NCBI GenBank assembly: GCA_044228445.1
Contig: JBGAUV010000002.1
Location: forward strand, 19,219 to 83,218
Direction: 5' to 3'
DNA from: Minisyncoccia bacterium
GTDB taxonomy: Bacteria > Patescibacteriota > Minisyncoccia > Phycocordibacterales > PALSA-1337
DNA length: 64,000 nucleotides
Below the pieces are notes generated by a model, which saw nothing but the letters and a program-made list of their open reading frames with translations, was not told the DNA's origin and did no database searches. Both the position numbers and the translations under genes were made by a program. Shown piece by piece: positions 31,811-37,166 of the stretch. The first letter of the stretch is position 1. Each line of letters starts with the position of its first letter.

Positions 31811-32713
31811 ATGGCAAATAGACATCTTTCAAGATCAATAGTTCTCCAAACCCTATTTGAATGGGATTTTCGAGGTCAAAACGATAAAGAAATAAAGGAT
31901 ATTGTAACTAGAGATGCAAAAGAATTTGCTCCAGGGGTAAATGATGTTTCTTTTATTGAAGAATTAACTTCAAATGTACTAGCCAAAAGACCCGATTTGG
32001 ACAAAATAATAGAAAAAGCAGCTCCAGATTGGCCACTTGATAAAATATCAGTCGTCGATAGAAATGTGCTTCGTATAGGTTTATACGAATTACTCTTTGC
32101 CGATAGAGATGAAGTTCCTGCAAAAGTAGCTATAAATGAAGCTATAGAACTAGCAAAAAACTTTGGAGGAGAAAATAGTGGTAAGTTTGTAAACGGTGTA
32201 CTAGGTTCAGTATACAAAGAATTGGGAGAACCAGGAAAGGATGCAACACCAAAAAAGAAAAAGAAGATTGAAGATATTCCTTATGAACAAATGCCAATAC
32301 AAAATCTTGGCGGAGCAGTAGTTTTTGCAAGAGATGGTAGTGATATATATCTAGCTTTTGTTCATGATGTATTCGGACACTGGACATTATCAAAAGGAAA
32401 AATCCCAAATGGTGTCGATATAAAAGAGGGTACAGTAGCAAAAGTAAAAGAAGAAATGGGTTTGGATGTAAAAATAGTTCTAGACCTTGGAAATAATGAA
32501 TATATAGCAAGTGATCCAGAGCTTGGAAAACTTAGAAAACAAGTACATTACTTTTTAGCTGAATCAAAATACTCAGATATAACACTAGCAAAAAAACCTG
32601 GACTAGATGATGGAAAATGGTTCAAACTAGCAGATATACTTGAACTTAATTTTTATAATGATATATTGCCAATAGTTACAAAATCCATAAAGTATTTGAC
32701 TGAAGGAAAGTAG
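31811..32713 (+). CDS. nusB: NusB-family antitermination factor fused to a C-terminal NUDIX-fold domain (degenerate NUDIX box)
   Basis: Amino acids 1-140 form a NusB domain (RSIVLQTLFEWDF...VDRNVLRIGLYELLF...AINEAIELAKNFGGENSGKFVNGVLG). A Lys-rich linker PKKKKK follows. Amino acids ~165-300 then carry GHWTLSKGKIPNGVDIKEGTVAKVKEEMGL, which aligns with the MutT segment [30 protein letters not shown]. Confidence 0.75.
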   Translation: MANRHLSRSIVLQTLFEWDFRGQNDKEIKDIVTRDAKEFAPGVNDVSFIEELTSNVLAKRPDLDKIIEKAAPDWPLDKISVVDRNVLRIGLYELLFADRDEVPAKVAINEAIELAKNFGGENSGKFVNGVLGSVYKELGEPGKDATPKKKKKIEDIPYEQMPIQNLGGAVVFARDGSDIYLAFVHDVFGHWTLSKGKIPNGVDIKEGTVAKVKEEMGLDVKIVLDLGNNEYIASDPELGKLRKQVHYFLAESKYSDITLAKKPGLDDGKWFKLADILELNFYNDILPIVTKSIKYLTEGK

Positions 32714-32724
32714 TAGCAAAATCT

Positions 32725-33420
32725 ATGCCAGATTTCCTAAAACTTGCAAGTAAAATAAAAACTGAATTTAAAGATATAAACCTGCTTCGCCAGGCTTGTA
32801 CTCATCGTTCATATTTAAATGAAAATAAATCTTCAGGTCTTGAACATAATGAAAGACTGGAGTTTCTTGGTGATGCAGTACTTGAACTAGTTGTTACACA
32901 TTTTCTATACAAAAAATTCCCAGGAAGAAATGAAGGTGAACTTACAGCTTATCGTTCAGCAATAGTAAATACCGTAAGCTTATCAAAAGCAGCAAGCTTT
33001 ATGGGTATAAATGAATACTTACTTTTATCAAAAGGAGAATCAAAAGATACAGGAAGAGCAAGATCAATTATTCTTGCAGATACAGTTGAAGCAATTATCG
33101 GATCTATTTATGTAGATCAGGGTTATGATAGTGCAGAGAAATTTATTGCTAACTTTATACTAGAAGTTATTGATATTGATGAAATAATCGATAAGAAACT
33201 TTGGCTTGATGCAAAGAGTCGTTTCCAAGAAAAAGCTCAAGAAGAAACAGGTATAACTCCAACATATAAAACTATGAAAGAAACTGGTCCAGATCATAGC
33301 AAACTCTTTACTCTAGGTGTATTTATAGGTGATAAACAAATAGCTTTAGGAACAGGAATGTCAAAACAAGAAGCAGAACAAAAAGCCGCAGAAAAAGCAC
33401 TAGAGGTAAAAGGGTGGTAA
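32725..33420 (+). CDS. rnc: ribonuclease III
   Basis: The RNase III signature ERLEFLGDAVLELVV and a C-terminal dsRBD are present. Confidence 0.9.
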   Translation: MPDFLKLASKIKTEFKDINLLRQACTHRSYLNENKSSGLEHNERLEFLGDAVLELVVTHFLYKKFPGRNEGELTAYRSAIVNTVSLSKAASFMGINEYLLLSKGESKDTGRARSIILADTVEAIIGSIYVDQGYDSAEKFIANFILEVIDIDEIIDKKLWLDAKSRFQEKAQEETGITPTYKTMKETGPDHSKLFTLGVFIGDKQIALGTGMSKQEAEQKAAEKALEVKGW

Positions 33421-33424
33421 AAAT

Positions 33425-34321
33425 ATGTTAAAAAAGAATAATTTAATTTACATCATTCCGCTCATTTTAATACTTGCTATTTTTTCAAGATATACGATTT
33501 TAAGCATATTTCATTTAGAGAAAGTGGTAGAAAATAAACCAATAATTAATAATATTAAAGAGGGTAAGGATGAAACACAAAAAAAGAATATAGATAATAG
33601 ACTATTATCTGATGAACTTTATGATTATAAAATAATAGGAGGAAAATATTTATATAAATATGTTGCAAATATCGATCCTGATAAATTTAAAATCATTGAT
33701 AACGGACTTGCAGTAGATGATGTATGGACATATTGGAATGGGTCACGAATAGATATTACTCCAAGTAAAATGGTTGTGATAAGAAATAAGGATATAATAT
33801 CGGCACTAAAGGATGACTATAGAGTTTTTGTTGCACCGAATAATGATCCAATACAAGTAAAGGGTGCTGATCCAGTTAGTTTCGATTTTAATAATGGAAA
33901 TCAATATCCTAGTGATAAAAATCATGTTTATTATATGAAGTATAACTACGATGATTCAGGTATAAGTATATTACAAGATGCAGACCCAAAATCATTTAAA
34001 GTTTTAGGAGAGTGTCGAATGATTGAAATATATGGAACATTGCTAGCAAAGGATTCAAAACATGTTTATGTGGAGAATAAAATAATTCCATATATAGATA
34101 CAGAAAGTTTTAATTTTATTACTAAATTTTCACTTGATAGTGTAGATTTGCCAGCTATGTTTAGTTTTTCTAAGGATAAAAATAATATATATTATAATTG
34201 CGGTAAGATTTTAGAAGGTGCTGATTATAATACATTTGAATATATTGGAAACGGTGTAGCGCAGGATAAGAATTATACTTATAAATTGGGAGAATTTAAT
34301 TCATTTAGAGTTAAGAGATAG
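33425..34321 (+). CDS. DKNYY-domain repeat protein with N-terminal membrane anchor
   Basis: An N-terminal transmembrane segment is present. The motif DKN(H/N)(V/I)YY recurs (DKNHVYYMKY, SKHVYVENK, DKNNIYYNCG), consistent with the DKNYY family. Confidence 0.6.
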   Translation: MLKKNNLIYIIPLILILAIFSRYTILSIFHLEKVVENKPIINNIKEGKDETQKKNIDNRLLSDELYDYKIIGGKYLYKYVANIDPDKFKIIDNGLAVDDVWTYWNGSRIDITPSKMVVIRNKDIISALKDDYRVFVAPNNDPIQVKGADPVSFDFNNGNQYPSDKNHVYYMKYNYDDSGISILQDADPKSFKVLGECRMIEIYGTLLAKDSKHVYVENKIIPYIDTESFNFITKFSLDSVDLPAMFSFSKDKNNIYYNCGKILEGADYNTFEYIGNGVAQDKNYTYKLGEFNSFRVKR

Positions 34322-34925: not shown

Positions 34926-37166
34926 ATGTATCTCAAATCACTCGAGATTGTGGGTTTTAAGTCATTTGCAAAAAAGGCAAGTCTAAATTTTACTTCACCT
35001 ATATCAAGTATTGTAGGGCCCAATGGTTCTGGAAAAAGTAATGTTGCAGAAGCATTTCGTTTTGTACTTGGTGAACAATCCATAAAAAGCATGAGAGGTA
35101 AGAGAGGAGAGGATCTTATTTTTAATGGTGGAGGTGAAGGAAATAGAGTAAATAGCGCTTCAGTAAAAGTAGTTTTTGATAATAGAAAAAAGATTTTAAA
35201 TATAGATTTTCCTGAAGTAAGTTTGGAAAGAAGAGTTCATAGAGATAATTCAAATGAGTATTTTATAAATGGAAGCCAAGTAAGACTTAAGGATATTATA
35301 GAATTACTTTCAGGGGCACATATAGGTGCTTCAGGACATCATATTATTTCACAAGGTGAAGCCGATAGAATATTGAATGCAAATATTCGTGAAAGAAAAG
35401 AAATGATAGAAGATGCACTTGGTCTTAAAATTTATCAATATAAAAAGACAGAAAGTCAAAAGAAACTAGAAAAAACTGATGAAAATATGAAATCAGTAGA
35501 GTCTCTACGCCGTGAACTAGCTCCACATTTAAAATTCCTAAAAAAGCAGGTTGAAAAAGTAGAAAAAGTTGCTGAACTTAGAAGAGAATTGGAAGAAGTA
35601 TATAAACAATACATAAAGACTGAAGAGATATATGTAAAAAATGAAAAAGAAAAAATAAATATAGAGAAACAACCTTTAATAAAAGAAACAGAAATACTAG
35701 ATAAAGAAATTGCCAATGCCAGAAAAGTCCTTGAAACTTCAAGTCATAGAGATATATCTTCAGATGAATTAATTTCAATAGAAGGAAAACTAGCTGAAAT
35801 AAGAAAAGAAAAAGACGGAATATTTCATGAAAGTGGAAAAATAGAAGGAGAAATTACAGTTTTAAATAGAGCCCTTGAAAGAGAAAAGCAAGCTCATGCT
35901 AGGGATGAACATAAGACAGTATATGTAAGCCAAGTAGAAGAAATTGGTCTAAAAATAGAGAGTTTAAAAGATATACTTGATGCAAAAACATTATTTACAG
36001 AAGTAAAAAGGATATTTACTGATTTTATTTTATTTCATAAAGGTAATAGAGATAATTCTAGAATTGAAGACATAAATAAAGAATTAAAATTACTCATTTC
36101 TCAAAAGCAGGATTTAGAAAAATCTTTACAAAAAATAAAAGAAAAAGAAGATAATACGACAGTGGATTATCTTGAACTTAGAAAAAAGATAGAAAGAGAA
36201 AAAGATACAAATAGAGATGCAGAAAAACAAGTTTTCCAAATAATAGCTCGTCAAAATGAAATTAGAGGACAATTAAATGCAATAAGGACTAGAGAAACAA
36301 ATCTTGTTATAGATGAAGAAAATTTGAAGAAAGAAATAGAACAAGCGTATATGTTTGTTGGAAGAAGTGCTGTGGATTTTGGTGACTTAGTTGTGGATAC
36401 TAATGAAGATAGAAGTATTCAACATGATAGATTGAGAAAAATTGAAAAAATAAAGATAAGAATAGAAGATTCTGGTGCTGGAAATGGTGGAGAAATTTTA
36501 AAAGAGTATAAAGAAGCAGAAGAACGCGATGCATTTTTAGCAAAGGAACTTTCAGATTTATTTGCTTCAAAGAAATCTTTATATGATTTAATTGCAGATT
36601 TAGATATGAGAATATCTATAGAGTTTAAAGAGGGAATATTGAAAATAAATAGTCAATTTCAAGAATTCTTTTCACTTATGTTTGGTGGAGGAAATGCTTC
36701 ATTATCAGTTGTAAAAGAAAAGAAAAAGAAAAGATCTCTAACAGATTTGGGGGCAATATTAAATAATGAAGAAAGTATTCCAGAATCAGAAATAGATGAT
36801 GAAAATGGGGAAGAAGGAATAGAAATACAAGTTAGTCTACCAAGAAAGAAAATAAAAAATCTAATGATGCTTTCAGGTGGAGAAAGAGCACTTACTTCGA
36901 TCGCTCTTCTTTTTGCTGTATCTCAAGTGAATCCTCCACCTTTTATTATTCTAGATGAAACAGATGCAGCACTAGATGAAGCAAATTCAAGAAAGTATGG
37001 AGATATGATTGCTAATCTTTCAAAATATTCTCAATTAATTTTAATTACACACAATAGAGAAACAATGTCTCGAGCGGGAGTAATATATGGGGTAACTATG
37101 GATGGGGGAGGTAGTTCAAAATTATTATCAATACAGTTTGAAGAGGCAGTAAAGGTGGCGAAATAA
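34926..37166 (+). CDS. SMC-family ATPase, short (746 aa) with no recognisable hinge domain
   Basis: The N-terminal head is SMC-like (LEIVGFKSFA...IVGPNGSGKSNVAEAFRFVLGEQSIKSMRG). The C-terminal head has the signature/Walker B motifs (LSGGERALTSIALLFAV...PFIILDETDAALDEAN). The centre is about 400 aa of coiled coil with no Gly-rich hinge motif. Confidence 0.75.
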   Translation: MYLKSLEIVGFKSFAKKASLNFTSPISSIVGPNGSGKSNVAEAFRFVLGEQSIKSMRGKRGEDLIFNGGGEGNRVNSASVKVVFDNRKKILNIDFPEVSLERRVHRDNSNEYFINGSQVRLKDIIELLSGAHIGASGHHIISQGEADRILNANIRERKEMIEDALGLKIYQYKKTESQKKLEKTDENMKSVESLRRELAPHLKFLKKQVEKVEKVAELRRELEEVYKQYIKTEEIYVKNEKEKINIEKQPLIKETEILDKEIANARKVLETSSHRDISSDELISIEGKLAEIRKEKDGIFHESGKIEGEITVLNRALEREKQAHARDEHKTVYVSQVEEIGLKIESLKDILDAKTLFTEVKRIFTDFILFHKGNRDNSRIEDINKELKLLISQKQDLEKSLQKIKEKEDNTTVDYLELRKKIEREKDTNRDAEKQVFQIIARQNEIRGQLNAIRTRETNLVIDEENLKKEIEQAYMFVGRSAVDFGDLVVDTNEDRSIQHDRLRKIEKIKIRIEDSGAGNGGEILKEYKEAEERDAFLAKELSDLFASKKSLYDLIADLDMRISIEFKEGILKINSQFQEFFSLMFGGGNASLSVVKEKKKKRSLTDLGAILNNEESIPESEIDDENGEEGIEIQVSLPRKKIKNLMMLSGGERALTSIALLFAVSQVNPPPFIILDETDAALDEANSRKYGDMIANLSKYSQLILITHNRETMSRAGVIYGVTMDGGGSSKLLSIQFEEAVKVAK

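Follow-up and report, generated by a model that had tools for sequence, protein, structure and literature searches.

The stretch of DNA considered here (hereafter the window; 64,000 nucleotides from contig JBGAUV010000002.1 of a Minisyncoccia bacterium) contains a gene, nusB::nudix, in which the transcription antitermination factor NusB is continued by a second domain of the Nudix fold. The gene lies at positions 31811..32713 of the forward strand and is a single open reading frame (ORF) of 300 amino acids (aa), opened by ATG at 31811 and closed by a TAG stop codon, with a second TAG immediately after it. Classical NusB is a stand-alone protein of ~140 aa; the window protein, at 300 aa and with two domains, is not of this single-domain kind, and the same holds for its counterparts in 76 of 80 related loci. 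The gene order in this part of the window is dnaE (on the reverse strand), rnhB, rpmF, nusB::nudix, rnc, a DKNYY-family gene and a short smc.

Domains of the fused protein

From its N-terminus, the protein consists of a NusB domain of seven helices (aa 1-143, 31811..32239), a flexible lysine-rich linker, DATPKKKKKIEDIPYEQMP (aa 144-162, 32240..32296), and a Nudix-fold domain of the type found in hydrolases of diadenosine tetraphosphate (Ap4A; aa 163-298, 32297..32704), all on the forward strand. The N-terminal part is recognised by the Pfam family PF01029 (NusB; aa 7-136, E-value 7.7e-37, 127.1 bits against 23.1) and by TIGR01951, the nusB equivalog of NCBIfam (128.2 bits, the cutoff being 88.35). 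For the C-terminal part, PF00293 (NUDIX) matches aa 171-283 with an E-value of 7.2e-07 and 29.7 bits when the full protein is searched, and with 31.7 bits when the domain is searched in isolation, the Pfam gathering score being 21.1. What extends beyond a classical NusB thus amounts to ~155 aa, made up of a GEPGK motif, the lysine-rich linker and the Nudix domain.

The same division is seen in an AlphaFold2 model built on an alignment of 64 sequences, with a mean predicted local distance difference test (pLDDT) of 88.7. Specifically, seven helices span aa 2-138 (the first at aa 2-20, the last at aa 121-138), aa 143-151 are disordered (pLDDT <50), and an alpha/beta/alpha domain follows at aa 163-298, the pLDDT of 10-residue blocks being 83-97 over aa 161-290 and 87 over aa 291-300. 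When the model was compared with the PDB using Foldseek, the N-terminal half matched NusB of Aquifex (3r2d_B, template modelling (TM) score 0.86 on the target, root-mean-square deviation (rmsd) 2.1) and of M. tuberculosis (1eyv, TM score 0.82 on the target). The C-terminal half matched many Nudix structures with a probability of 1.00; the best was the Aquifex Ap4A hydrolase 3i7u (TM score 0.89 on the target, rmsd 2.1), followed by Rv2985 of M. tuberculosis, the Nudix domain of NrtR (3gz8), MutT1 and CT771 of Chlamydia, and further down by Ndx1 of Thermus, the Ap4A hydrolases of C. elegans and human (NUDT2), and Dcp2. A profile search of the PDB with the Nudix half leads to much the same proteins, namely CT771 (2.4e-09), aq_158 (3.4e-07), the C. 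elegans enzyme (7.5e-06) and NUDT2 (2.5e-05), with Rv2985 also among the best.

Over its full length, the NusB half can be aligned with the NusB proteins of Thermotoga, Aquifex and E. coli, including chains from the complex entries 5ms0, 6gov and 6tqn, and in the sequence alignment both the helix-1 aromatic residue F16 and the segment FGGENSGKFVNGVLG are conserved. F16 is aligned with what we take to be Y18 of E. coli NusB, and the tripeptide ENS at aa 121-123 (32172-32180) has Asn where E. coli NusB presumably has D118, the E. coli numbering being in both cases our assumption. ENS is also read at the equivalent position in 3imq (an E. coli NusB chain) and in Thermotoga NusB. Both folds are authentic, a true NusB and a Nudix domain of the Ap4A-hydrolase type. 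The original prediction, made from the letters of the window, had described a canonical NusB domain joined by a poly-Lys linker to a C-terminal half of the NUDIX fold, and had matched the peptide GHWTLSKGKIPNGVDIKEGTVAKVKEEMGL (located at aa 189-218) to the Nudix box; the profile and structure searches bear out the two domains and their linker, and the peptide does match the box.

Distribution of the fusion and the question of an artefact

One genome per species was scanned (GTDB r232) and 80 loci were fetched; orthologue counts given below refer to 77 full-length orthologues. At least 600 genome stretches matched, and 594 of these 600 were confirmed by tblastn. An uninterrupted fused ORF covering query residues 1 to ~297 was found by tblastn in 76 of the 80 fetched loci, with lengths of 296-333 aa. 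The remaining four comprise three loci that are cut by the end of a contig and one (L012) that is split, with two high-scoring segment pairs in different frames. Because an intact fused ORF recurs in 76 of 80 independent genomes, which come from many studies, misassembly or a frameshift artefact was ruled out as its source, and this also disposes of the frameshift or assembly join at the linker that the original prediction had named as grounds for its own refutation.

Protein searches give the same picture. The C-terminal domain retrieved 434 protein clusters, and nearly all of those long enough to judge carry both Pfam domains; named clusters among them belong to Taylorbacteria, Kaiserbacteria, Paceibacterota and Patescibacteria. 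A HMMER search over 1.84 billion representatives at 50% identity found 561 relatives, including 38 near-full-length fused representatives whose Nudix domains are 25-50% identical to that of the query. Relatives of at most 275 aa without the NusB N-terminus, as seen in a first protein search, were considered and rejected as a separate form, being a property of the listing: genome DNA and the representatives give ~290-330 aa. The titles of many metagenome-assembled genomes read 'uncultured Candidatus Saccharibacteria' on sequences ~80% identical to Taylorbacteria-labelled ones; they look generic, and these labels were not used. The fusion is therefore real and lineage-wide in Patescibacteria/Paceibacteria, and its earlier description as unusual stands for bacteria in general but not for this lineage, where it is the rule (at least 594 of 600 stretches). 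In the source databases, these proteins are named either 'transcription antitermination factor NusB' or 'ADP-ribose pyrophosphatase / MutT (NUDIX family)'.

Two individual relatives deserve separate mention. P0191 (L087, 3785-4672, 295 aa) is listed in precomputed Pfam results with NusB alone and has NAETDEG in place of the box, and a hidden Markov model of the family matches its C-terminal domain at 3.9e-38. P0194 (1140 aa) contains seven tandem copies, 48 aa apart, matching the first ~40 residues of the Nudix domain, which may reflect either a repeat protein or faulty assembly.

The linker is of interest with regard to frameshifting. Its run of Lys/Arg residues is kept in the 77 orthologues regardless of codon usage or GC content, and both the GEPGK motif just upstream and a PY-x-x-MP motif are conserved. 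Within it, positions 32251-32257 form an in-phase slippery heptamer of the dnaX type, A_AAA_AAG, at which a -1 shift would lead to a stop after four codons (...PKKEKED) and to a NusB-only product. Only ~18 of the 77 orthologues have an in-phase heptamer in their linkers, and many orthologues alternate AAG and AAA, avoiding it. The heptamer is probably a by-product of lysine codons, to judge by this comparison; programmed -1 frameshifting was rejected as a conserved feature, since it is the lysine-rich peptide, and not a nucleotide motif, that is conserved.

A degenerate Nudix box

The Nudix box of the window protein, GKIPNGVDIKEGTVAKVKEEMGL (aa 196-218, 32396..32464, forward strand), was read directly and compared across the family. 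Set against the signature GX5EX7REUXEEXGU, it keeps six of nine positions (G196, V212, E214, E215, G217 and L218) and has lost the other three (E202V, R210A and E211K), so that the box is incomplete. The first reading of the sequence had noted that EExG is kept and that the Arg-Glu pair is replaced by Ala-Lys, which is correct; it missed the third loss, that of the first Glu (E44 of MutT), here V202. Nudix enzymes bind metal through RExxEE (PMC5526541), and of the five acidic or basic signature residues responsible for holding the catalytic metals, three have been replaced in the window protein. More specifically, K211 aligns with E58 of human Ap4A hydrolase, and G264 with E103 of the C. elegans and E110 of the human enzyme, so that both catalytic Glu positions are replaced. 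An E58A mutant of the human enzyme is itself a solved entry (4ijx) in the Foldseek list.

That the box of this gene is degenerate, as had been claimed for it, is true, but the degeneration is a family-wide trend in which canonical and degenerate versions coexist. Among the 77 orthologues, 30 keep E202, R210 and E211, 10 have lost E211 only (to K, A or G), and 37, including the query, are without R210 and show a hydrophobic residue or a gap at 202, A/N/S at 210 and K at 211. All 77 have E214 and E215. Erosion is more advanced among the 38 divergent fused representatives: E211 (the equivalent of E58 in human NUDT2) is kept in 10, E214 in 20, R210 in 26 and E202 in 27. Some divergent fused boxes have become unrecognisable (GGDGNEN, NAETDEG), yet gene and synteny persist. 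Degenerate orthologues carry a net charge of -0.8 in the box segment, as against -4.0 in canonical ones. An AT bias was considered as the cause of the degenerate boxes and ruled out, because they occur in loci of 31-55% GC.

Positions of the putative ligand pocket

In Ap4A hydrolases, as known from the Plasmodium, human and C. elegans enzymes, the P1 phosphate is bound by His, Lys, Tyr and Lys, the adenine is sandwiched between a Tyr and a Tyr or Phe, and Glu130 contacts the adenine amino group (PMC4734340). The corresponding positions of the window protein, all encoded on the forward strand, fall into an HWTLSK motif (aa 190-195, 32378..32395; HMMER alignments to 1kt9 and 3u53), the segment from Y231 to K243, YIASDPELGKLRK (32501..32539), and Y282-N283-D284 (32654..32662), the latter two located by alignment to Ap4A hydrolases. 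In these alignments H190 and K195 correspond to the phosphate-binding human H37 and K42, Y231 to Y82 (adenine stacking and P1 phosphate), K243 to K89, Y282 to F128 (the second adenine-stacking residue) and D284 to E130 (contact with adenine N6).

All six residues (H190, K195, Y231, K243, Y282 and D284) are invariant in 77 of 77 orthologues. In the 38 divergent fused representatives, W191 is found in all 38, K195 in 37, Y282 in 36 and D284 in 30, and the position of Y231 is Tyr in 33 and Phe in four, that of K243 Lys in 28 and Arg in six. A further element, the loop AKKPGLDD (aa 260-267, 32588..32611, forward strand), co-varies with the state of the box, reading KKPGLDD with degenerate and (G/S)GGLDD with canonical boxes; its pair D266-D267 is invariant in the clade to which the window protein belongs.

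Selection and the two states of the domain

The ratio of nonsynonymous to synonymous substitution rates (dN/dS) was estimated for pairs chosen to have unsaturated synonymous divergence. For the degenerate Nudix half it is 0.034 between the query and L001, 0.008 between L002 and L003, 0.037 between L002 and L017, and 0.126 between the query and L010, and for the NusB half of the same pairs it is 0.03-0.09 (0.03-0.06 when the first three pairs are considered). Mean pairwise identities of the Nudix and NusB halves are 0.754 vs 0.756 among degenerate and 0.686 vs 0.690 among canonical orthologues. These comparisons indicate that purifying selection constrains the degenerate Nudix domain as strongly as the NusB half, and that the domain is not decaying.

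When trees are inferred from the NusB half only, two orthologues with canonical boxes, L029 and L032, group within the degenerate clade. Between L029 and its sister L009, identity is 96-100% at aa 51-143 and at aa 271-298, yet it drops to 43% in the box segment (aa 196-225) and to 53% in the loop segment (aa 256-270). The same pattern is seen between L032 and L008 or L020, and the NusB halves of such pairs are 89-92% identical. Moreover, L029 and L032 resemble each other in exactly these two segments. Judging by these alignments, the switching between states could reflect either recombination of a tract of ~75 codons or repeated concerted change.

Gene neighbourhood

The gene for RNase III, rnc (32725..33420, forward strand; Pfam Ribonucleas_3_3, Ribonuclease_3 and dsrm), begins 11 nucleotides downstream of the fusion, and rpmF, which encodes ribosomal protein L32 (31515..31739, forward strand; Pfam Ribosomal_L32p), is the upstream neighbour. 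This arrangement is strongly conserved: rnc lies directly downstream in 80 of 80 loci and rpmF upstream in 74, the contig ending just upstream in at least some of the others, and the order rpmF-fusion-rnc is retained in the very divergent loci L081 and L087. A scan of the window found no terminator-like site on the forward strand between nusB::nudix and rnc, and promoter and terminator signals around the fusion gene were at background level. The two genes are probably co-transcribed. The order rpmF...rnc-smc resembles what we take to be the Firmicutes arrangement rpmF-plsX-fab-acpP-rnc-smc-ftsY, with the lipid genes absent and nusB::nudix in their place. Neither a second NusB nor a related Nudix gene was found in the 64-kb window.

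Between rnc and smc lies a gene for a DKNYY-family protein of 298 aa with a hydrophobic start (33425-34321, forward strand), and the distance between rnc and smc varies from ~10 nucleotides to ~2.7 kb across the 80 loci, making this a variable insertion point. The SMC homologue (34926-37166, forward strand) has only 746 aa, and its counterpart in L087 (5348-7555) has 735 aa; SMC_N is matched at both ends, no hinge-domain family is reported, and SMC looks unusually short in this lineage.

Relatives in other settings were also noted. A divergent NusB::Nudix protein of 315 aa, P0212 (L088, 6001-6948), is not beside rnc, and a few kb upstream on its contig are genes for NAD synthase, quinolinate phosphoribosyltransferase and an isochorismatase-family protein. 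Free-standing relatives of ~140 aa sit in unrelated contexts, one phage-like (L084) and one an ordinary chromosomal locus (L085). The former, P0164 (L084, 4001-4453), has a canonical box and 37% identity, and its neighbours are an integrase, a DNA methylase and a faint match to Phage_rep_O.

Interpretation

NusB binds S10 and boxA RNA in the complex that carries out transcription and antitermination of ribosomal RNA (rRNA). Seen together, the conserved pocket, the eroded box and the signature of purifying selection suggest that this organism's NusB brings a catalytically impaired, ligand-binding Nudix module into the rRNA Nus complex, a reading that is held at roughly even confidence. Specifically, the module would bind an adenine-nucleotide 5'-polyphosphate moiety as its putative ligand, and the charge shift of about +3 in the box segment would leave lysines, rather than Mg2+, facing the phosphates. 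The suggestion made with the original prediction, that an impaired Nudix domain could act in sensing RNA 5' ends or nucleotides, would fit such a pattern of binding kept and catalysis lost.

The ligand favoured here is the 5' end (a triphosphate or an Np4A-type cap) of the nascent pre-rRNA leader, which NusB would already be holding via boxA. The module might then anchor or sense this end during the looping of the leader to RNA polymerase by the Nus complex, with the first cuts made by RNase III, the product of the next gene; orthologues with an intact box would probably still hydrolyse the 5' end, and degenerate ones would only bind it. An RNA 5' end is favoured because (i) NusB already binds boxA in the rRNA leader, (ii) the linker is conserved as lysine-rich, (iii) rnc is always the next gene, and a genetic interplay of nusB and rnc is documented in E. 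coli, and (iv) RNA ends bearing ppp or an Np4 cap are substrates of related Nudix enzymes. Even so, the choice of the pre-rRNA leader 5' end as ligand is speculative and is put forward tentatively.

Several points weigh against the reading of an impaired module with an RNA ligand. The loss or strong reduction of hydrolysis in the window's clade would follow from the motif alone, and since E214, E215, D266 and D267 persist, a reduced metal site with residual catalysis could be present. The 30 of 77 orthologues that keep E202, R210 and E211 may mean that hydrolysis is ancestral and still important. The residue correspondences in the pocket are profile alignments at 20-25% identity, in which the register of Y231 with Y82 is off by one relative to C. 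elegans, and the position of H190 is His in only three of the 38 divergent fused representatives, being mostly Tyr or Lys. The contrast with 14 putative stand-alone relatives, which keep the Glu equivalent to E58 in 11, E214 in 13, R210 in 12 and the canonical triad in 11, is indicative, as the set is small and at least one member (P0131, at the start of a contig and followed by rnc) is a fragment of a cut fusion, as others may be. The AlphaFold2 model has a predicted TM score of 0.59, and the placement of the NusB and Nudix domains relative to each other is not confidently predicted. The 64-kb window contains no rRNA (Rfam gave one tRNA only), and so no boxA or leader in it. Lastly, a free Ap4A or ATP effector is nearly as likely as an RNA 5' end, the evidence fitting both alike.

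One alternative is that the Nudix domain is still an active hydrolase (of Ap4A, in Np4A decapping, or RppH-like) with a remodelled site, which the fusion delivers to the rRNA 5' leader to leave a 5' monophosphate. The invariance of E214, E215, D266 and D267 in the clade and the full box of 30 orthologues would agree with this, all of the nearest solved relatives are active Ap4A or ApnA hydrolases, and purifying selection fits an enzyme equally well. What makes it rather unlikely is that three signature residues are lost together, among them the Glu equivalent to E58 of NUDT2, that RExxEE binds the metal (PMC5526541), and that the replacements reverse the charge; furthermore, a comparably perturbed signature in NrtR gave a barely detectable kcat, and divergent fused lineages lose even the EE pair while domain and synteny persist.

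If the ligand is instead a free small molecule (Ap4A, another dinucleoside polyphosphate, ATP or an alarmone), the domain would be an allosteric sensor that tunes NusB and rRNA synthesis, an elongation-factor counterpart of NrtR. In NrtR, the effector domain is indeed a Nudix domain whose signature is patchy, and intact and degenerate versions likewise occur side by side; in favour, too, is that the 77 orthologues conserve the positions that in Ap4A hydrolases stack on the adenine, contact its N6 and bind the phosphates. The flexible, poorly predicted linker offers no obvious allosteric route to the NusB domain, however, and its conserved lysine-rich character, together with strict rnc adjacency, points to RNA, so that this alternative appears doubtful.

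A purely structural role, in which the domain bridges NusB/S10/boxA to RNA polymerase or NusA and any ligand is irrelevant, has a precedent in SuhB, an enzyme fold that bridges the rRNA antitermination complex of E. coli, and catalytic residues are dispensable in many fused lineages; but a scaffold would not be expected to keep W191, K195, Y231, K243, Y282 and D284 so well, and the explanation is accordingly considered quite improbable. An artefact, or a programmed -1 frameshift at the linker that normally yields a NusB-only product, is so improbable that it can be set aside, the dnaX-like heptamer in phase at 32251-32257 and the early stop in the -1 frame being outweighed by the intact ORF of 76 of 80 genomes and by the scarcity of the heptamer among the linkers.

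Taken as a whole, the preferred reading of an impaired, ligand-binding module would give a two-part NusB that captures the 5'-terminal nucleoside polyphosphate of pre-rRNA, or senses free Ap4A, and thereby makes co-transcriptional looping of rRNA and its processing by RNase III depend on the state of the 5' end or on an alarmone, with catalytic and binding-only versions of the active site (aa 196-225 and 256-270, two non-contiguous segments) swapped between close relatives by recombination. In this full form the proposal is a possibility well short of an even chance.

Few bacterial transcription factors are as conserved as NusB, which nearly always consists of its 140 aa and nothing more; here, a species-rich lineage of ultra-small bacteria keeps a second domain on it, and has repeatedly discarded the catalytic residues of that domain while preserving most of the ligand pocket. 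If an RNA 5' end or a dinucleotide alarmone is indeed bound, this would be the first such sensing built into the Nus/rRNA transcription complex, and an elongation- or processing-level counterpart of what NrtR does at promoters. More practically, a second functional domain goes unmentioned in hundreds of database entries that carry only the name 'NusB', and natural pairs of catalytic and non-catalytic versions that differ only in two short segments offer experimental material.

Comparison with known systems

Both kinds of domain are already known, as is the concept of Nudix-derived effector domains. What appears to be new is the fusion of Nudix to NusB, its lineage-wide fixation beside rnc, and the systematic erosion of catalytic residues with most of the pocket kept; no published description of a NusB-Nudix fusion was found in the searchable literature on NusB with Nudix, Patescibacteria, Parcubacteria or the candidate phyla radiation.

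With classical NusB (E. coli 5ms0/6tqn, Aquifex 3r2c/3r2d), the window protein shares its N-terminal 143 aa, which match the equivalog, form the seven-helix bundle and align end to end; it differs in the Nudix extension and in the position of its gene between rpmF and rnc. A well-known case of a NusB-like domain fused to a catalytic domain directed at rRNA is RsmB/Sun, a 16S rRNA methyltransferase. It likewise combines a NusB-like with an enzyme domain, and NCBIfam models for it match aa 37-152 of the window protein weakly, but the best model reaches 55.3 bits against a cutoff of 319, the window protein has no methyltransferase domain, and its NusB is a true equivalog.

Turning to the C-terminal domain, Ap4A hydrolases of the animal-archaeal type (3i7u, 4ilq/4mpo, 1kt9, 3u53) are its best matches in both sequence and structure, sharing an xHWTxxKG motif, a K-x-V-x-Y-[FW]-L-A strand and aromatic residues at the adenine-stacking positions. 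Unlike them, the window domain has Lys in place of human E58, has lost the first signature Glu and the Arg, and is fused to NusB; their loop Glu (E103/E110) is Gly in nearly all fused forms. RppH (NudH) is also a Nudix enzyme that acts on RNA 5' ends, from which it reportedly removes Np4 caps (PMC8833179, PMC7044304), and the window protein matches its model NF001936 weakly (E-value 6e-04). That match amounts to 19.7 bits against a cutoff of 118, the RppH box is intact, and the window domain is nearer to the NUDT2/CT771 type.

SuhB of E. coli, with the fold of an inositol monophosphatase, is a bridging subunit of the rRNA antitermination complex in which catalysis is not regarded as its primary function (PMC4807359, PMC6614797, PMC6614801). 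In the same species, defects of nusB are suppressed by rnc mutations, and the Nus factors loop boxA RNA to RNA polymerase (PMC4807359). The likeness to the window protein lies in an enzyme fold within the NusB/S10/boxA complex and in a genetic link with rnc (PMC4807359); the fold is unrelated, however, SuhB is a separate subunit, and any bridging of the fused Nudix domain to RNA polymerase would be hypothetical.

The closest functional precedent, by analogy, would be the NrtR family. When its Nudix signature is perturbed, NrtR binds ADP-ribose and barely hydrolyses it, and restoration of the signature raises kcat 600-fold (PMC2330246). As in the window protein, the Nudix-derived domain is joined to a transcription factor that binds nucleic acids, and intact and perturbed signatures are mixed within the family. 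NrtR, however, derives from ADP-ribose pyrophosphatases, carries a C-terminal winged-helix DNA-binding domain and is a repressor of initiation, whereas the window protein has no winged helix-turn-helix and its partner domain, NusB, is N-terminal and an RNA-binding factor of elongation and antitermination, so that the likeness is functional and architectural only.

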